From NCBI GenBank assembly GCA_041660745.1, contig JBAZVT010000002.1, positions 15,210 to 79,209 on the forward strand: DNA of 64,000 nt, given 5' to 3'. This DNA is from Minisyncoccota bacterium (lineage in GTDB: Bacteria > Patescibacteriota > Minisyncoccia > Phycocordibacterales > JBAZVT01). Shown piece by piece: positions 12,318 through 63,564 of the stretch. How positions within the stretch are numbered: position 1 is the stretch's first letter; every line of letters begins with the position of its first letter. A program made the translations under genes and the position numbers. The notes below the pieces were generated by a model that saw nothing but the letters and a program-made list of their open reading frames with translations, did not search any database and had not been told where the DNA came from.

Positions 12318-12379
12318 GAATCTATTTTTTGTGAGGGGTGTGGACAGTCACGATAAGAAAAAGTGATATAATAAAAAGC

Positions 12380-13105
12380 ATGGCTGATGATAAAAAACCA
12401 AAGGGGGGTGATAAGGGAAAGAAGCCAGCTGAAGCTGTTGCGCCAACTGGTTTTGGAGGTACTTCATTAACTCTTGAGGAGGCGATTTTGTTCGCTATTG
12501 TTATTGTTGTAATTTTTGTTGCAGTTGGTGGAACAATGTTTTTCAAAAGCTTTTCGATTTCTCCGCATTTTTTCTCAAACCTTTTTTATGGATTTTTGAA
12601 TTATTCTGTCGCATTCGGGCTAAGTGTCTTAGATTGGTTTAGCATTGTTTCTTTTGGACTTACATTTTCACTCTCAGTATTGATAGCTATTGTTTTCTTT
12701 AAAACTGATAAAATCGGACATGCTGAACATGAAAAATATTATCCTACCGACTCGAATAATTCTTTGATTGAAATGACTTCCAAGACCGTTAAAAATCAAA
12801 AATGGGAAAATATACTTTTGCATGTTTCTTCTGACAAACAGAATGACTGGAAGATTGCAATTCTTGAAGCTGATATTATGCTTGGTGATATGTTGGAGCG
12901 TATGGGGTACCGCGGAGAGGGTATTGGTGACATGTTGAAGTCTATTGAAAAAAGTGATTTCACTACTTTGGATAGCGCGTGGGAGGCCCACAAGATTCGA
13001 AATATGATTGCTCACGAAGGACAGGATTTCATTCTCACAGAACGAGAGGCACGCAGAGTTATTGAATTATATAAGGCCGTCTTTAATGAGTTTAAGTTAA
13101 TTTAG
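12380..13105 (+). CDS. membrane-anchored protein with C-terminal HEPN-like (Rx4H) domain
   Basis: Basic N-term, 2-3 TM helices, C-terminal …AHKIRNMIAHEGQDF… matches HEPN R-x4-6-H signature (DUF4145-like). Confidence 0.45.
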   Translation: MADDKKPKGGDKGKKPAEAVAPTGFGGTSLTLEEAILFAIVIVVIFVAVGGTMFFKSFSISPHFFSNLFYGFLNYSVAFGLSVLDWFSIVSFGLTFSLSVLIAIVFFKTDKIGHAEHEKYYPTDSNNSLIEMTSKTVKNQKWENILLHVSSDKQNDWKIAILEADIMLGDMLERMGYRGEGIGDMLKSIEKSDFTTLDSAWEAHKIRNMIAHEGQDFILTEREARRVIELYKAVFNEFKLI

Positions 13106-13149
13106 AATTCCTGGATAATTTTAAGTGAAAGTAGTATGAGGCCGACCCC

Positions 13150-13178
13150 TTGCGGTTTTTTGTATTATTTTGTATAAT
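13150..13178 (+). promoter_or_regulatory. sigma70-type promoter with extended -10 (TTGCGG-17-TGtTATAAT) upstream of initiator-like tRNA
   Basis: tgtataat at 13171-13178, TTG-containing -35 17 bp upstream. Confidence 0.45.
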
Positions 13179-13193
13179 AGTTCGACTGTTAAT

Positions 13194-13264
13194 CGCGGAG
13201 TAGAGAAGTAGTATCTCGGGAGGCTCATAACCTCCAGGCCTTGGTGCAATTCCAAGCTCCGCAA
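13194..13264 (+). tRNA. initiator-like tRNA-fMet (CAT) with degenerate D/T loops
   Basis: CGCGGAG…CTCCGCA-A acceptor with C1xA72 mismatch, A11:U24, anticodon loop CTCATAA, GC-rich anticodon stem, A73; strong similarity to E. coli tRNAfMet ends; D-loop AGTAGTA lacks GG and T-loop TGCAATT has G55. Confidence 0.5.
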
Positions 13265-13315
13265 CACATAACAAAAGAATCCCGAACTGGGGTTCTTTTG
13301 TTATGTGTTGCGGAG
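13257..13315. terminator. long perfect hairpin (23-bp stem, 13-nt loop) overlapping tRNA 3' end
   Basis: ctccgcaacacataacaaaagaa[tcccgaactgggg]ttcttttgttatgtgttgcggag. Confidence 0.5.
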
Positions 13316-13453
13316 AGAATACAAATAGTTTTGTATTCGTCAGGAATTGCAGGCCGGAGATATGTCGTGAGTCTTCGAGACGACATCGAGGCGGGGTTGA
13401 GAGTACTTTGGCTTTTGAAGGCTTTTGCGACAAAAGACTTAGTAACTCGTGAC

Positions 13454-13473
13454 CAATTCCAAGCTCCGCAACA
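13454..13473 (+). repeat. direct copy of initiator-like tRNA 3' terminal 20 nt (tRNA-linked repeat)
   Basis: caattccaagctccgcaaca identical to 13247-13266. Confidence 0.7.
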
Positions 13474-13475
13474 AT

Positions 13476-13512
13476 AAAGAAAAACACCTTCGTTCCGAAG
13501 GTGTTTTTCTTT
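13476..13512. terminator. bidirectional Rho-independent terminator between convergent tRNA units
   Basis: aaagaaaaacaccttcg-ttcc-gaaggtgtttttcttt. Confidence 0.75.
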
Positions 13513-13541
13513 ATGCGCGGCTGAGCGGGTTAAGACTTGAA
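13513..13541 (-). repeat. degenerate copy of tRNA-Asp 3' end (T-arm 3' half + acceptor 3' strand)
   Basis: minus strand reads ttcaagtc(ttaac)ccgctcagccgcgcat vs tRNA ggttcaagtccgctcagccgcgca. Confidence 0.6.
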
Positions 13542-13623
13542 TCTTACAGATTCAGTACAGGTTTCCCAAAATTAAAAATAAGAATTTTTGATTTTATGGG
13601 AGAACCTCTTCAAGTCCGCTACG

Positions 13624-13643
13624 GAAGCAAAGCAGTTTGCTTC
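13624..13643 (-). repeat. conserved hairpin motif gcaaactgctttgc (tRNA-spacer module)
   Basis: minus strand gaagcaaactgctttgcttc; same core recurs at 14108 and 14359 with compensatory outer-stem changes. Confidence 0.6.
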
Positions 13644-13684
13644 CTCAGCCGCAAAAAAACAGCCCTAAAGCTGTTTTTTCAATG

Positions 13685-13758
13685 CGCGGCTGAGCGGACT
13701 TGAACCGCCGACCCCTCGCGTGACAGGCGAGTGCTCTAACCAGCTGAGCTACAACCGC
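13685..13758 (-). tRNA. tRNA-Asp (GTC)
   Basis: rc: GCGGTTGTAGCTCAGCTGGTTAGAGCACTCGCCTGTCACGCGAGGGGTCGGCGGTTCAAGTCCGCTCAGCCGCG, anticodon loop CTGTCAC, discriminator G; followed by hairpin terminator. Confidence 0.85.
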
Positions 13759-13819
13759 ATAGGTTAACCATAAGAGGATATCAGATTAAACGTTTTTATT
13801 CAACCCTGAAGATCTCTTG

Positions 13820-13893
13820 TGTCGGCGGATGGGATCGAACCATCTACCTTGGGCTTATGAGTCCCACGCTCTAACCAATTGAGCTACGCCGAC
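13820..13893 (-). tRNA. tRNA-Met (CAT), elongator-type (G1-C72 paired)
   Basis: rc: GTCGGCGTAGCTCAATTGGTTAGAGCGTGGGACTCATAAGCCCAAGGTAGATGGTTCGATCCCATCCGCCGACA. Confidence 0.8.
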
Positions 13894-14007
13894 ATTCTCT
13901 TATATTATCCACAAAAAACGACTTTTCGCAATATGGGGTTTGAAAATTTGATTGAAAAAACTGAGTATCTATAGTATGCTCTTCGTATACATTTTTTAAT
14001 TGTATAA

Positions 14008-14080
14008 GCCGTTGTAGCTCAGTCGGTAGAGCACGTCATTGGTAATGACGAGGTCACCAGTTCAATCCTGGTCAACGGCT
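14008..14080 (+). tRNA. tRNA-Thr (GGT)
   Basis: GCCGTTGTAGCTCAGTCGGTAGAGCACGTCATTGGTAATGACGAGGTCACCAGTTCAATCCTGGTCAACGGCT. Confidence 0.85.
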
Positions 14081-14107
14081 CAAGCGCAAAGCGATTGGGC
14101 TGTTGAA

Positions 14108-14129
14108 GCACGCAAACTGCTTTGCGTGC
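14108..14129 (+). repeat. conserved hairpin motif gcaaactgctttgc + inverted T-loop fragment (14132-14143 ccaggattgaac)
   Basis: gcacgcaaactgctttgcgtgc; followed by reverse complement of tRNA T-loop/stem. Confidence 0.6.
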
Positions 14130-14225
14130 GCCCAGGATTGAACGGCGGAACTATATTTTTCAGTAGAAAAATAAGTGAGCTGGTGCCTAGGCAAAACTTT
14201 TTGACGAAAAAGTTTTAGTCGCGGG

Positions 14226-14244
14226 CAATCCCGCTCAACGGCTC
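14226..14244 (+). repeat. degenerate copy of tRNA-Thr(GGT) 3' end
   Basis: caatcccgctcaacggctc vs tRNA caatcctggtcaacggctc (17/19), forms own mini T-arm hairpin gcggg-caat-cccgc. Confidence 0.6.
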
Positions 14245-14261
14245 TATTTTAAAAAACGCAA

Positions 14262-14334
14262 GCCACCTTAGCTCAGTTGGTAGAGCACTACTTTCGTAAA
14301 GTAGGGGTCCGCAGTTCGATCCTGCGAGGTGGCT
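14262..14334 (+). tRNA. tRNA-Thr (CGT)
   Basis: GCCACCTTAGCTCAGTTGGTAGAGCACTACTTTCGTAAAGTAGGGGTCCGCAGTTCGATCCTGCGAGGTGGCT. Confidence 0.85.
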
Positions 14335-14358
14335 CTGAATCCGTGAAGAGACAACACA

Positions 14359-14380
14359 GTAAGCAAACTGCTTTGCTTAC
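14359..14380 (+). repeat. conserved hairpin motif gcaaactgctttgc + inverted T-loop fragment (14383-14393 gcaggatcgaa)
   Basis: gtaagcaaactgctttgcttac then rc of ttcgatcctgc. Confidence 0.6.
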
Positions 14381-14444
14381 GGCAGGATCGAAAGGGTTTT
14401 CCTTATCGAGTCTTTGAGATGGAAAACCACCTGGCTACGTGGTA

Positions 14445-14478
14445 GTCGATCCTGCGAGGTGGCTCCGAATCTGTGAAG
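14445..14478 (+). repeat. direct copy of tRNA-Thr(CGT) 3' end plus 15 nt of 3' flank
   Basis: gtcgatcctgcgaggtggctccgaatctgtgaag vs gttcgatcctgcgaggtggctctgaatccgtgaag. Confidence 0.7.
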
Positions 14479-14528
14479 GGGAATAGATTAAGCTTTATTT
14501 TTGAAGCTATTTTTCCTCTTGACTTTTT

Positions 14529-35095: not shown

Positions 35096-35169
35096 GTTGG
35101 TTATTATTTTATAATAAAAACGTTTCAAGTATAGCTCTCTGGCCTAACCCGACAACATGCTAACTCGTG

Positions 35170-35240
35170 CTGCGGGGCTTGGACTCGAACCAAGATACCA
35201 TGCTCCAGAGGCATGTGTCCTACCATTAGACGATCCCGCA
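35170..35240 (-). tRNA. tRNA-Gln (CTG)
   Basis: rc: TGCGGGATCGTCTAATGGTAGGACACATGCCTCTGGAGCATGGTATCTTGGTTCGAGTCCAAGCCCCGCAG; U1-A72, short D-arm typical of Gln. Confidence 0.75.
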
Positions 35241-35328: not shown

Positions 35329-38300
35329 ATGGCGAAAGGCGTACAATATCTAAATACTATGCAAGAATACCTCAAAAATATTGCAGTTAAATTTTCTGAC
35401 CCACAAACAAGTGAAATGGGTTATCGAACTGATCTTGAGAATCTTTTGGTAAAGATTTTTCCAAAAGATAAAAAATATCAGATACATCATGATGCGAAAG
35501 CTGTTGGAGGAAATAAGCCCGATTTTGTTATTTTGAAAGATGGTGTGCCTCTGTTATATATAGAAGCGAAAGATATTGGTGTCAGTTTAGATAAAGTAGA
35601 AAAGAGTGATCAAATGGATCGTTATTTTGGTTATAATAATCTTGTGCTGACAGATTACGTTGAATTTCGTTTTTATCGAAACGGTGAAAGATATGGTGAG
35701 CCTGTTGCTATCTCTACATTTGATAAGACATATCGGACAATAGTAGAACTTAGTCATAATTTTTCTTTACTTTCAAAAACCATTGTGGATTTTGCTGCTT
35801 CCCACAAGGAGCCCATAAAACGTGGAAAACACTTAGCACAGATTATGGGAGGTAAAGCTCAGCGTATTCGGGATAATGTGAAGGAAATGCTCGTTGTGAC
35901 TTCAGATGCGTATGCCGACCTTCTTAAAATGCGTGATGTGGTCAAGGAACATCTCGTCTCAAGTCTTGACGATGAGTCGTTTGCCGATATGTATGCGCAG
36001 ACTCTGGTGTATGGACTTTTTGCCGCTCGGTACAATGATAAGACCGCAGATAATTTTTCACGTGCTGAGGCTCGAGAGCTTGTGCCTAAAACAAACCCAT
36101 TTCTTCGATCATTTTTTGATCATATAGCCGGAGAATCTTTTCCGGACAGACTTGGATTTATTGTTGATGAGTTATGTGAAGTTTTTACCCATGCAGATGT
36201 GCATAGATTAATGCATGAATATTTTACACAGGGAAAAATCTCTGGCGGGGTACATACGAGTCCTGATCCAGTCATCCATTTCTATGAAGATTTTCTGCGT
36301 GAGTATGATACAAAAAAGAAGATGGAAATGGGTGTTTTCTATACACCGCGCCCAGTCGTGCAGTTTATTGTGCGGGCAGTAGATAGTATTCTTAAAAGTG
36401 AATTTGGACTTGAAAAAGGTTTAACCGACACAACAAAAATTTCTGTTGAGAAAAAAGAAACGAACGAAAAAGGTAAAGAGGTAAAAGTTCAAAAAGAATA
36501 TCACAAAGTTCAAGTACTTGATGTAGCGACTGGTACGGGCACTTTTTTGAATGAAGTAATTACTCATATTTATAGTAGCTTTAAAGGTCAAGAAGGTGGG
36601 TGGCCTGCGTATGTTGAAAATGACCTTCTGCCACGACTACACGGCTTTGAGTTGATGATGGCTTCATATACTATTGCTCATTTGAAATTGGGTATGACAC
36701 TTCATGATACTGGCGCTGGGGGAATTAATAAAAGATTGGGTGTTTATTTAACAAATACACTTGAAGAGGCAAAAAATTCCATATGGGGTAATAATAGCTT
36801 ATTTGTGGGTGTGCAAGAAAGTATCACCAAAGAGGCAATTGAGGCTTCGCGCGTTAAGTCAGATTATCCGATAATGTGTGTAATTGGAAACCCGCCATAT
36901 TCCGGCATTTCTATGAACAGGCATTATACAGATAATAATGTGTATAAAGTGGAACCGGGAGGCTTGCAGAAGCTTCAAGAGAAGAAAAATTGGCTTGATG
37001 ATGATTATGTAAAATTTATTAGATTTGCAGAAAGTTTGGTTGAGAAGAATGGTGAGGGGGTCGTGGGAATGATTACTGCACATGGATATATTGATAATCC
37101 TACGTTTCGTGGGATGCGTTGGCATTTAAGGAAAACCTTTGACAAGATTTATGTTATTGATTTGCATGGAAATAGTAACAAAAAAGAAACTGCTCCCGAT
37201 GGCGGAAAAGATGAAAATGTTTTTGATATTAAAACGGGAGTTTCAATGATCTTGGCAATAAAAAATTCTCCCGATGTAAAAAGTAAGAAACTCGGGCAAG
37301 TTTATCAAACTGATTTTTATGGATTGCGAGAAAGTAAATATGAACGCTTGGATGTAGAAAGTATTGAGTCAATTAAATGGAACGAATTACCTGAAAATAC
37401 GGAAGTCTGGCGTGTTGAAGGTAAAGGAAAAAGTGAATACCAGAAAGGCTTTTCTGTTGCAGAATTGTTTCCTAAAAATACCACAGGGATAGTCACTATG
37501 GGGGATAGTTTTATCGTTGACAAAGACAAAGAAATTCTTACAAAGAGAGTTCGGGAATTTTTGTATAACAACGTTTTAGAAAATGAATTAAAGTTTAAAT
37601 ATAATCTTGGTAAAAACTATGCAAAGTGGGTTATTGATAATAAGAAAAAAATTCAAGATGATCCAAGTAAAATAGCTTCACTTTTGTATCGTCCTTTTGA
37701 TAGTAGATATACTTATTTTGATAAAAATTTAGTATGGAGAACACGCGATCAGGTTATGATTCAACTAGTTAATAGGGAAAATATTGCTTTCATTGCCTCT
37801 CGGATAAACAGGCAGGCTAGTCTTGGATACTTCTTTGTAACGAAGACTCTTACAGATTTTCATGTTTTAGACAATGCTCAAGATTCAACTTCAGTTTTTC
37901 CTCTTTATCTTTACGACGAACGAGGAGAAAAGATTCCAAACATTAATAAGGCAATTTGGCAAAAAATAAATGAACTAGTGGGAGAGACTATTCCTGAAAA
38001 TATTTTGGACTATGTTTACGCGTACTTACATTCACCGAATTATCGCGATAAGTATAAAGAGTTTCTAAAGATAGATTTTCCTCGTGTTCCATTCCCTAAA
38101 AATAAGGAAGAGTTCTGGAATCTTGTCCCGCTCGGTACAAAACTTCGTGAGCTGCATTTAATGACTTCGTCAGAGTGCAATAAGCTTATAACCACATATC
38201 CTGTAACTGGGGGCGATGTCGTAGAAAAAATAAAATACGAGAAAGAGAAAGTATATATTAATAATACGCAGTATTTTGGGAATGTCCCTAAAGTCGCTTG

Positions 38301-38463
38301 GGATTTCTATATTGGGGGTTATCAACCTGCTCAGAAATGGCTTAAAGATCGTAAGGATAAAAAACTTTCAAATGAAGATATCGAACACTATCAAAAAATG
38401 ATTGTGGTATTGGTGGAAACCGATAGAATCATGAAAGAAATCGATAAAACTTTTGAAAATTAA
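35329..38463 (+). CDS. Type IIG/IIL restriction-modification enzyme (fused PD-ExK endonuclease + gamma-class N6-adenine MTase; MmeI/Eco57I-like)
   Basis: N-terminal PD…EAK (GGNKPDFVILKDGVPLLYIEAKD), MTase motif IV NPPY (VIGNPPYSG), motif I-like DVATGTGTFL; 1044 aa. Confidence 0.8.
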   Translation: MAKGVQYLNTMQEYLKNIAVKFSDPQTSEMGYRTDLENLLVKIFPKDKKYQIHHDAKAVGGNKPDFVILKDGVPLLYIEAKDIGVSLDKVEKSDQMDRYFGYNNLVLTDYVEFRFYRNGERYGEPVAISTFDKTYRTIVELSHNFSLLSKTIVDFAASHKEPIKRGKHLAQIMGGKAQRIRDNVKEMLVVTSDAYADLLKMRDVVKEHLVSSLDDESFADMYAQTLVYGLFAARYNDKTADNFSRAEARELVPKTNPFLRSFFDHIAGESFPDRLGFIVDELCEVFTHADVHRLMHEYFTQGKISGGVHTSPDPVIHFYEDFLREYDTKKKMEMGVFYTPRPVVQFIVRAVDSILKSEFGLEKGLTDTTKISVEKKETNEKGKEVKVQKEYHKVQVLDVATGTGTFLNEVITHIYSSFKGQEGGWPAYVENDLLPRLHGFELMMASYTIAHLKLGMTLHDTGAGGINKRLGVYLTNTLEEAKNSIWGNNSLFVGVQESITKEAIEASRVKSDYPIMCVIGNPPYSGISMNRHYTDNNVYKVEPGGLQKLQEKKNWLDDDYVKFIRFAESLVEKNGEGVVGMITAHGYIDNPTFRGMRWHLRKTFDKIYVIDLHGNSNKKETAPDGGKDENVFDIKTGVSMILAIKNSPDVKSKKLGQVYQTDFYGLRESKYERLDVESIESIKWNELPENTEVWRVEGKGKSEYQKGFSVAELFPKNTTGIVTMGDSFIVDKDKEILTKRVREFLYNNVLENELKFKYNLGKNYAKWVIDNKKKIQDDPSKIASLLYRPFDSRYTYFDKNLVWRTRDQVMIQLVNRENIAFIASRINRQASLGYFFVTKTLTDFHVLDNAQDSTSVFPLYLYDERGEKIPNINKAIWQKINELVGETIPENILDYVYAYLHSPNYRDKYKEFLKIDFPRVPFPKNKEEFWNLVPLGTKLRELHLMTSSECNKLITTYPVTGGDVVEKIKYEKEKVYINNTQYFGNVPKVAWDFYIGGYQPAQKWLKDRKDKKLSNEDIEHYQKMIVVLVETDRIMKEIDKTFEN

Positions 38464-38479
38464 TTATTAGTTATCCACA

Positions 38480-38507
38480 GATGTTTTGCCGATATCGGCA
38501 AAACATC
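38480..38507. promoter_or_regulatory. perfect 28-bp palindrome gatgttttgccgat|atcggcaaaacatc between RM gene and dinD
   Basis: No flanking T-run on either strand, so operator-like rather than terminator. Confidence 0.4.
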
Positions 38508-38523
38508 AAAAAATAATAAAAAT

Positions 38524-39378
38524 ATGAAACTAGAGGTGATTCAACAATACTTGGGAAAGTTTGATCAATATGTGCATAAGGCTGGTGACGCTGAGTTCTG
38601 TTTTGCCAGAGATTTGCAGGGTTTGTTGGGATATACAAAATGGGATAACTTTTTAAATGTTATAGAAAAAGCAAAGATTGCCTGTAAGAATTCCGGTGGT
38701 AGTATTGATGAAAATTTTGCGTTTACCACGAGGCTTGTAGAGATGCCTAATGGTGGAACAAAGGATGCAGAGGATTATTTTCTTTCTAGATACGCATGTT
38801 ATCTTGTTGCACAAAATGGTGACTCGTCAAAAGAGCCGGTTGCTTTTGCAATGAGCTACTTTGCTGTTCAAACGCGAAAACAAGAAATTCTTGAAAAGAA
38901 GATTGAGGAAATTGAAAGGTTGCAGGCAAGAAATAAATTAAGTTTGTCAGAAAAGGAGTTATCTGGCGTTGTATATGAAAGAGGGGTTGATGGTCAAGGT
39001 TTTGCTGTGATTAGAAGTAAGGGAGACCAGGCACTTTTTGGTGGAAAAACTACCGCTGAAATGAAGAATAAGTATAAGGTCTCAAATTCTAGAGCGCTGG
39101 CAGATTTTTTACCTACCATTACAATAAAGGCGAAAGATTTTGCTAATGAAATTACCATTTTTAATGTTAAAAAGAATTCTGGTTTAAGAGGGGTAAATAG
39201 CATTACGAATGAACATGTCAAAAATAATAAAGATGTCCGAGACTTGTTGAAGAAAAGAGATATAATTCCCGAAAATCTCCCTCCTGAAGAAGATATTCAG
39301 AAATTAAGAAGAAGAATTGATTCTCAGGGTAAAAATATTTTAAAAGAAGTGGGTGGTAAAAGAAATGATCGGGGATAA
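38524..39378 (+). CDS. dinD: DNA-damage-inducible protein D (DinD family)
   Basis: LSRYACYLVAQNGDS…FAVQTRKQE closely parallels E. coli DinD LSRYACYLVVQNGDP…FAIQTRRQE. Confidence 0.85.
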   Translation: MKLEVIQQYLGKFDQYVHKAGDAEFCFARDLQGLLGYTKWDNFLNVIEKAKIACKNSGGSIDENFAFTTRLVEMPNGGTKDAEDYFLSRYACYLVAQNGDSSKEPVAFAMSYFAVQTRKQEILEKKIEEIERLQARNKLSLSEKELSGVVYERGVDGQGFAVIRSKGDQALFGGKTTAEMKNKYKVSNSRALADFLPTITIKAKDFANEITIFNVKKNSGLRGVNSITNEHVKNNKDVRDLLKKRDIIPENLPPEEDIQKLRRRIDSQGKNILKEVGGKRNDRG

Positions 39379-63336: not shown

Positions 63337-63522
63337 CATGAGCGCAGTGAATGTGCTCCGAGAAAAGCTCCGGGGGAGCTTTGTGCCAGAATCGAAGCCT
63401 GCTTGAGATTTTCTTGAGTGACTACAGTGGGTGGTGCCGTTCTCAGGCACCATTTACTATAGTTACCCGCGAGCGGTATCTGCACGAAAAAGAAAATCCA
63501 AGTAGGGTACTGAAACTGTAAG

Positions 63523-63544
63523 TTTCGATTCTGGCCGGGGACAC
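63523..63544 (+). repeat. direct copy of tRNA-Arg 3' terminal 22 nt (tRNA-linked repeat)
   Basis: gtttcgattctggccggggacac vs tRNA gttcgattctggccggggacac; spacer also has inverted T-loop fragment ccagaatcgaa at 63385-63395. Confidence 0.7.
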
Positions 63545-63564
63545 CCGTGATATAATAATTACCT

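Follow-up and report, generated by a model that had tools for sequence, protein, structure and literature searches.

A probable initiator tRNA of a Candidatus Paceibacterota bacterium with a covarying A18-G55 elbow, and the structured element downstream of it

The window described here, a 64,000 nucleotide (nt) stretch of DNA, carries a tRNA gene with the anticodon CAU that very probably encodes the functional initiator (tRNA-fMet type) of a Candidatus Paceibacterota bacterium, and which would belong to a class of initiators where A18 and G55 covary in the place of G18 and pseudouridine (Psi) 55. G18 and Psi55 are treated as near-universal residues in tRNAs, and two conserved enzymes, TrmH and TruB, act on them. 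The class is apparently undescribed; full-text literature searches gave no account of an A18/G55 elbow or of an initiator specific to the Candidate Phyla Radiation (CPR), an absence that is no proof of novelty. A first-pass annotation made from the letters of the window had already recognised the gene as initiator-type, and the sequence it quoted is indeed present on the forward strand (Table 1); it also regarded the tRNA as degenerate with its elbow contacts eliminated, a view that the comparisons below do not bear out.

ARAGORN, one of the checks that had been proposed, calls a tRNA-Met(cat) at 13194-13265, and the Rfam model RF00005 scores the gene at 56.2 bits against a gathering threshold of 29 (E = 1.9e-9), the only non-standard pair that it flags being 1:72. 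The initiator identity can be read directly from the sequence: the acceptor stem is CGCGGAG/CUCCGCA with C1xA72, i.e. without a Watson-Crick pair at 1:72, the formylation determinants G2:C71, C3:G70 and A73 are all present, the D-stem GAGA/UCUC contains A11:U24, and the anticodon arm consists of a GGAGG/CCUCC stem, with G30G31:C39C40, and a CUCAUAA loop. The description of the anticodon stem as GC-rich holds for these two G:C pairs and not for the third, which is A29:U41. A variable loop of 4 nt is followed by a CUUGG/CCAAG T-stem, and the core tertiary positions U8:A14, G15:C48 and G26 are kept. In place of the canonical elbow of G18G19 and U54-U55-C56 the tRNA has A18 G19 and U54 G55 C56, so the observation of a 7-nt D-loop without GG and of a T-loop with G at position 55 was correct, G18 and U55 both being missing. 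The D-loop is numbered in this way because canonical relatives have their GG at the same two positions, the fourth and fifth of the loop. With Escherichia coli tRNA-fMet the tRNA shares the CAU within a CUCAUAA loop, C1xA72, G2:C71, C3:G70, A11:U24, A73, the CGCGG...CCGCAA ends, G30G31:C39C40, U8, A14, G15:C48, G19:C56 and U54:A58; it differs in having A18 and not G18, G55 and not U(Psi)55, a D-loop of 7 rather than 9 nt, A29:U41 rather than G29:C41, a 4-nt variable loop and no encoded CCA.

The same design is widespread in the CPR. One genome per species, 185,579 species in all, was scanned with the pattern GGCTCATAACC, 11-12 nt, GTGCRANNC, which fixes the anticodon arm and G55 and leaves the D-loop free. 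There were at least 120 matches, and among those listed 101 lie within ARAGORN tRNA-Met(CAT) genes. Approximately 83 of these 101 come from CPR lineages, including Paceibacterota/Parcubacteria, Saccharibacteria-labelled metagenome-assembled genomes (MAGs), Gracilibacteria, Berkelbacteria and further MAGs that are unlabelled but carry the same tRNA cluster. Although the pattern left it free, the D-loop lacks GG in 99 of these 101 genes, whose consensus is A-R-N-A-G-U-A for the D-loop and U-G-C-R-A-N-U for the T-loop, a design found in well over 100 initiator-type tRNAs of CPR genomes. When 69 distinct CPR sequences were aligned to the cloverleaf, 96% of cells were paired compared with 77% after shuffling, both sides had changed in 16 of the 21 pairs, and the covariation score of 0.51 (0.12 when shuffled) was reached by none of 500 shuffles; slid registers of the alignment all collapse. 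The initiator marks are similarly kept, with 1:72 unpaired in 55 of the 69 and U1:A72 in most of the others, A11:U24 in 65, G2:C71 in all 69, C3:G70 in 67, and G30G31:C39C40 in every sequence, whilst pair 29:41 is A:U in 59. In our alignment A1 positions G53, U54, G55, C56, A58, U60 and C61 are invariant. Furthermore in a relative with 85% aa (amino acid) identity in the neighbouring gene (L002-L006) the tRNA is identical at all 72 positions. Cloverleaf covariation together with the kept initiator marks argues that this is a gene under purifying selection and not a pseudogene; the first-pass annotation had named a lack of cloverleaf conservation in relatives as the sign of a pseudogene, and what is found is conservation with compensatory stem changes.

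Since the genome scan had selected G55, the relationship between positions 18 and 55 was examined in samples anchored on the neighbouring protein, the 241-aa product of the gene directly upstream of the tRNA (family P0001). Six homologues of this protein were looked up; the initiator lies directly behind the gene in five, and four of these five are A18/G55, the other being a fully canonical initiator (AGCCCGGUA, UUCAAAU, CCA; L252). A metagenome scan for the protein family gave 80 loci, 53 of them with an initiator-type tRNA, in which G55 occurs with A18 in 34 (64%) and U55 with G18 in 19, with no mixed cases (Fisher p = 8.4e-15). In the pooled data all 119 tRNAs with G55 have A18 and all 18 with U55 have G18. 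The non-CAT tRNAs of the fetched loci, which were unselected, follow the same rule: U55 accompanies GG 209 times and AG only twice, G55 accompanies AG 31 times and GG twice, and most of the seeming combinations of G55 with GG are AGGUAGU loops with the GG at 15-16 and A-G still at positions 18-19.

Both states share a 7-nt D-loop, AACGGUA with UUC as opposed to AACAGUA with UGC, and therefore the base that changes is position 18, G19 remaining opposite the invariant C56. Indeed there are near-isogenic pairs in opposite states, one of which (L312/L089) has a single other difference in 71 nt and two of which (L277/L098 and L297/L100) have three. With G19:C56, U54:A58 and R57 all kept, the sequences indicate that one tertiary pair, 18:55, is exchanged for a strictly covarying A:G and that the elbow is not lost. 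Judged from the protein-anchored sample, A18/G55 is the majority state of the initiator in this CPR clade, and it is also common in phages.

The initiator would be expected to fold as a normal L-shape in which N6 of A18 donates to O6 of G55, replacing the donation from G18 to O4 of Psi55. It would probably be charged by methionyl-tRNA synthetase and formylated, since it has the determinants that E. coli uses for this (C1xA72, G2:C71, C3:G70, A73 and A11:U24), and it should be unable to carry Psi55 or the 2'-O-methylated Gm18 because position 55 is a G and position 18 an A. Its elbow would thus be chemically distinct from that of the elongators, in which this genome retains GG and UUC.

A number of points weigh against this reading. 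The geometry of the A18-G55 contact is only inferred, and roughly one in three related lineages has a canonical initiator at this locus. The anticodon stem, with A29:U41, G30:C40 and G31:C39, falls short of the three G:C pairs of the textbook initiator. The minimum free energy fold of the naked sequence does not give a cloverleaf, although folds of this kind that miss the cloverleaf are common for tRNAs. Finally our view covers 64 kb of the genome and a canonical second initiator may lie elsewhere; within the window ARAGORN and a comparison of the CAT tRNAs reveal no further initiator-type gene, and the only other CAT tRNA has G1-C72, as the first-pass annotation stated.

Known systems offer partial parallels. 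The au/GC/GC anticodon stem is a natural variant in which the R:Y pairs are kept, and alpha-proteobacterial and some mycoplasmal initiators have such stems (PMC5389676). In these the first of the three G:C pairs is an A:U, as it is here and in the 59 CPR initiators counted above. Such initiators are not known to depart from the canonical G18G19 and T-Psi-C elbow. The eukaryotic cytoplasmic initiator has A54 and A60 in its T-loop (PMC7912444), and so likewise has an initiator-specific T-loop that sets it apart from the elongators of the same cell; the analogy is one of logic only, as the positions are 54 and 60 rather than 18 and 55, the domain of life is another and the change is not homologous. 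Superficially closer to it is a third initiator sub-variant seen in three metagenome loci (L261, L324 and L325), where the D-loop is AAAAGUA and the T-loop AGCGUUA, the intraloop U54:A58 being swapped to A54...U58 with G55 and C56 unchanged. That tRNAs without G18G19 and T54-Psi55-C56 can function is known from tRNA-Pyl (PMC1851642), whose Desulfitobacterium hafniense form has U54 G55; tRNA-Pyl has however also lost C56 and has a 5-nt D-loop, a 3-nt variable loop and a 6-bp anticodon stem, whereas all of the elbow except 18:55 is canonical in the window tRNA.

Within the CPR loci G55 is nearly restricted to the initiator. tRNA-Asp has U55 in 50 of 50 cases, as do nearly all tRNA-Thr and other tRNAs, the few A18/G55 exceptions being elongator Met, Thr and Gln tRNAs, and the other CAT tRNAs are elongator or Ile2-like in 60 of 60 cases. 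A separate departure from U55 is C55 with G18G19 kept (T-loop UCCGAUU), which occurs in some CPR elongators, namely tRNA-Thr ggt in L022, L026, L034 and L114 and elongator-type tRNA-Met in L029, L036, L060, L096, L100 and L119. Outside the CPR the matches listed are single genes or else large arrays that are mostly A18/G55 across all specificities, as in a Verrucomicrobia array (L007) where 12 of 13 parsed tRNAs (15 called) are A18/G55, with further such arrays in L020, L042 and L066, the four coming from Verrucomicrobia and Steroidobacteraceae MAGs. The same pattern applied to IMG/VR viral contigs found A18/G55 in 88 of 91 parsed genes among the matches listed (L127-L246), of which approximately 70% have a 1:72 mismatch and the other tRNAs of the loci are mostly canonical (469 compared with 42). 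Some of these initiator-like genes are on contigs of 200-400 kb. A BLAST search of the window tRNA against deposited phages returned canonical tRNA-Met only (Serratia phage BF, Gordonia phage GodonK and Pseudanabaena phage Pan5).

Transcription of the tRNA is probably from the TATAAT box upstream, which is found at an equal distance before the tRNA in L002. The first-pass annotation had proposed an extended -10 promoter; the hexamer is there, but the TG abuts it so that there is no textbook TGnTATAAT, and a consensus promoter scan called nothing on the tRNA strand. The hairpin that was said to lock the 3' end is also real, although it has 27 bp and not 23. Its arms (27 nt, 96% complementary) dominate the fold of 13194-13320 (-62.4 kcal/mol, z = -8.6), and its 5' arm opens with the acceptor 3' strand of the tRNA (66-73). 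The inner part, AAAAGAAUCCC-GAACU-GGGGUUCUUUU, resembles an intrinsic terminator, with a GAAUCCC/GGGGUUC stem followed by UUUUGUU; the consensus terminator scan made no call there because pairing continues over all 27 bp and the sequence behind the complete stem is not rich in U. The 3' arm closes with 9 nt (GUUGCGGAG) that are at the same time the "anti-acceptor" with which the downstream element begins. The hairpin does not simply lock the 3' end; it looks like a terminator-type stem lengthened by the 5' end of a distinct, conserved element. In a read-through transcript it would be predicted to pull the 3' strand of the tRNA off the acceptor stem, a loss that termination at the inner U-run would avoid; most transcripts probably stop at this inner terminator before the anti-acceptor is made, and those that read through would proceed into a separate tRNA-linked structured RNA.

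The element itself ends in a direct copy of the tRNA 3' end, and 3'-end copies are also found downstream of tRNA-Asp, both tRNA-Thr and tRNA-Arg(cct) in the window. Copies at a distance of 108-220 nt follow 18 of 228 CPR tRNAs compared with 2 of 206 from outside the CPR. Between the copies there is a common layout of a spacer or terminator hairpin, a segment antisense to the 3' strand of the acceptor, a small hairpin whose loop is often CUGC, a second segment antisense to the T-loop and the 3' strand of the T-stem, and a two-stem core in which a GGA/GA internal loop is conserved; the direct copy of the 3' end of the tRNA comes next, followed by a terminator. A covariance model (R1) built from nine members gave 28 matches with E < 1e-5, spread over 20 genome loci of the CPR, and a further 18 with E < 1e-4 in the metagenome loci anchored on the protein, with none in the non-CPR loci or in 100 viral loci. 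Nearly all of the matches have a same-strand tRNA ending 3-60 nt before them, which is most often the initiator but may also be Asp, Thr or elongator Met, and of either elbow type. In an alignment of 28 members, fitted to the model, 93% of cells pair, both sides change in 22 of 25 pairs and the covariation score is 0.65 compared with 0.21 when shuffled; the presence of a conserved G-U pair speaks for an RNA read from the same strand as the tRNA. The antisense of an element to its own tRNA has a median of 11 nt exact, whereas mismatched pairings average 5.4 and reach 9 at most; diverged members keep it better than the direct copy, as in L125 with 19 nt of perfect antisense to 54-72. Cores are common to different tRNAs of one genome (69% identity between the Thr and Asp elements of L002) as well as to the same tRNA in different genomes, and as the content differs between the window and L002 the element is dynamic.

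Elements range from approximately 130 to 210 nt in length with at least two core types, and besides the one at 13307-13472(+) the window has sites at 13515-13655(-), 14097-14244(+), ~14336-14465(+) and ~63338-63545(+). They were also seen in L002, L018, L023, L030, L032, L044, L055, L057, L058, L065, L083, L088, L090, L097, L101, L102, L109, L114, L125 and 14 metagenome loci. At tRNA-Thr(cgt) the direct repeat (14316-14348 and 14446-14478; 33 nt, 94% identical) extends 13 nt past the tRNA 3' end into the trailer, and therefore the duplication is not confined to tRNA sequence. No family in Rfam 15 matches the element, chance matches lying far below threshold, and literature searches found no description of it. 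It is similar to the tRNA-like domain of tmRNA, to viral 3' tRNA-like structures and to RNase P substrates of the mascRNA type in having an acceptor-like helix stacked on a T-stem-like helix and in ending with tRNA 3' sequence and a discriminator; it differs from them in having a core of ~100 nt instead of a T-loop hairpin, multiple copies per genome, ends that are copied from and antisense to the neighbouring tRNA, and no Rfam family. Candidate roles are those of a tRNA-like processed RNA, a regulator of its tRNA, or a small mobile element with target-templated ends.

Several other explanations of the downstream region were considered and set aside. An origin of the duplicated 3' ends as attachment-site (att) relics is ruled out by the conserved, structured, antisense-bearing segments and by the lack of an integrase nearby. 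Rfam finds no group I intron and the tRNA is intact; the preprint on group I introns in Patescibacteria concerns position 35/36 of Asn and Asp tRNAs (10.1101/2025.07.03.662931). A retroviral-type primer-binding site is not supported as the antisense does not reach over CCA, and ARAGORN was negative for tmRNA or permuted tmRNA. By reasoning only, H/ACA-like or C/D-like guides and a K-turn are at odds with the GGA/GA loop and with the geometry of the antisense, and to our knowledge bacteria lack H/ACA and C/D ribonucleoproteins.

Of the other ways in which the tRNA might be explained, a degenerating initiator pseudogene, non-functional after the loss of its elbow contacts, might be suggested by the non-canonical D- and T-loops and by the tRNA fragments that litter the locus in relatives, such as the 5' pseudo-copy at ~5440-5525 in L002. 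It is hardly credible given the identical tRNA in the 85% relative, the occurrence of the design in more than 100 species with compensatory stem changes, a strict 18/55 covariation without intermediates, and the intact state of the remaining tertiary-pair positions with an Rfam score of 56 bits. It is also very improbable that the gene is an elongator tRNA-Met, or a lysidine-type tRNA-Ile2, with an unusual elbow. A few elongator-type Met, Thr and Gln tRNAs of the CPR are likewise A18/G55, approximately 20% of the class have U1:A72 and so are able to pair, and the anticodon stem has only two of its three G:C pairs; yet C1xA72, A11:U24, G2:C71/C3:G70, A73 and the invariant G30G31:C39C40 are the hallmarks of an initiator, the elongator or Ile2-type CAT tRNAs of the same clusters differ from it (1:72 paired, Y11:R24 as C:G or U:A, no GG/CC), and these loci offer no alternative initiator candidate. 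An origin by horizontal acquisition would make the gene a phage or mobile-element tRNA and not the housekeeping initiator, an A18/G55 phage lineage having repeatedly replaced the resident gene. This would account for the preponderance of A18/G55 among the mostly initiator-like viral matches, for the tRNA arrays in which the non-CPR matches often lie, for the rearrangement of tRNA modules between the window and L002, and for the interleaving of the two states on a neighbour-joining tree of the neighbouring protein (104 aa), where 12 independent switches are needed compared with 15.7 for shuffled tips, a tree that is too weak for a count of events. However the ligA-gatCA-P0001-tRNA cluster keeps its position in many CPR lineages, near-isogenic backbones that differ at 18 and 55 argue for substitution in place, and among the surveyed open reading frames (ORFs) of the window there is no integrase, transposase, reverse transcriptase or phage gene, which leaves such an origin improbable.

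A different question is whether the 27-bp stem is a regulatory switch, in which the hairpin, or the element acting as an antisense in trans, sequesters the tRNA from T-loop to 3' end and controls the maturation or decay of the initiator. In the full-length fold the tRNA 3' strand is paired with the anti-acceptor and the T-loop with the anti-T, and the antisense of elements to their own tRNA exceeds that of the controls and outlasts the direct copy. The same complementarity would nevertheless be expected if the element merely closes on its own 3' copy, or if a palindrome was extended by template switching around the terminator, and with convergent neighbours it has no gene behind it that it could regulate; a switch of this kind is thus somewhat unlikely.

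The tRNA is preceded by the housekeeping genes ligA, gatC and gatA and by the gene for the 241-aa protein and is followed by genes for a CsoR-type repressor and copA (Table 1). An NCBI protein of a Candidatus Paceibacterota bacterium matches the 241-aa protein with 100% identity, and the homologues of the 241-aa protein, of which there are at least 488, are all from Patescibacteria/CPR, and therefore the window is part of a CPR chromosome, with ~40% GC. The P0001 family is CPR-specific, its members having ~200-240 aa and adjoining the initiator tRNA after ligA-gatC-gatA, with homologues beside the initiator in L002, L023, L061, L247-L252 and the 53 metagenome loci. An invariant C-terminal motif, AWEAHK(I/V)RNxxAHE, contains an R-x4-H that recalls HEPN RNases; a HEPN identity has no support from Pfam, where no domain was found in the protein and the best profile match, CTD11, was not significant (E = 0.11). 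Between 13194-14480 of the window and 5140-6540 of L002 the tRNA modules (initiator Met; Asp with elongator Met; Thr with Thr) have each been inverted in place, and L002 has in addition the initiator pseudo-fragment (5' part) and, behind its tRNA-Asp, two elements in tandem. In L247 there are three tandem repeats of the 5' part of an elongator tRNA-Met downstream of the initiator. Elsewhere in the window a tRNA-Gln(ctg) at 35169-35240(-) is followed at 35329-39378(+) by a Type ISP restriction-modification enzyme (1044 aa) and a BRO-N domain protein, a stretch of ~36% GC that is possibly a small island inserted beside the tRNA.

Table 1. Features at and around the initiator-type tRNA gene (positions are those of the window).
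Feature	Position	Strand	Details
P0001-family gene (241-aa protein)	12338-13105	+	called start 12380; directly beside the initiator tRNA
Terminator-like hairpin and T-run	13138-13159	+	ends the upstream P0001-family gene
TATAAT, -10-like box	13173-13178	+	15 nt 5' of the tRNA; follows TTG; no suitably spaced -35
Initiator-type tRNA-Met(CAU)	13194-13264	+	71 nt to discriminator A73, CCA not encoded; ARAGORN, Rfam, cloverleaf covariation
D-loop AGUAGUA	13207-13213	+	A14 G15 U16 A18 (13210) G19 (13211) U20 A21; no GG
T-loop UGCAAUU	13245-13251	+	U54 G55 (13246) C56 A57 A58 U59 U60
27-bp hairpin	13257-13315	+	arms 13257-13283 and 13289-13315
Element E, type 1	13307-13472	+	~165 nt; model R1 111.7 bits, covariation, direct repeat
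Element, anti-acceptor	13307-13315	+	
Element, hairpin P2	13317-13338	+	
Element, anti-T	13343-13351	+	GGAAUUGCA, complementary to tRNA 54-62
Element, core	between anti-T and direct copy	+	conserved GCC-GGA / GA-GGC internal loop, second stem
Element, direct copy of tRNA 56-74	13454-13472	+	last 19 nt of the tRNA
Bidirectional terminator hairpin	13474-13514		perfect, 19 bp; ends the + element and the convergent - element after tRNA-Asp
Second CAT tRNA	13819-13893	-	elongator or Ile2 type; G1-C72, canonical GG and UUCGA

For annotation the finding means that A18/G55 genes may score low or be labelled as pseudogenes. The replacement of G18-Psi55 by A18-G55 provides a ready-made isosteric test case for the architecture of the tRNA elbow, and predicts an initiator without two of the standard modifications. 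A broader proposal, which we think rather unlikely as a whole, is that A18-G55 is an unrecognised class of elbow used deliberately by cells and phages alike; in the CPR it would mark the initiator alone, free of Psi55 and Gm18 and so distinguishable by readers of the elbow (RNase P, modification enzymes, ribosomal P/E-site contacts and tRNA-targeting nucleases), phages would carry the same class to supply an initiator that evades attack by host or competitor, and the downstream RNA with its antisense to the last third of its own tRNA would be a new tRNA-specific regulator or an RNA-guided mobile element. The locus also reveals an unannotated RNA family, supported by covariation, that is linked to the 3' ends of tRNAs in reduced genomes with little non-functional DNA, and the tRNA invites one to ask whether the T-loop can serve to mark the initiator in bacteria as it does in eukaryotes.

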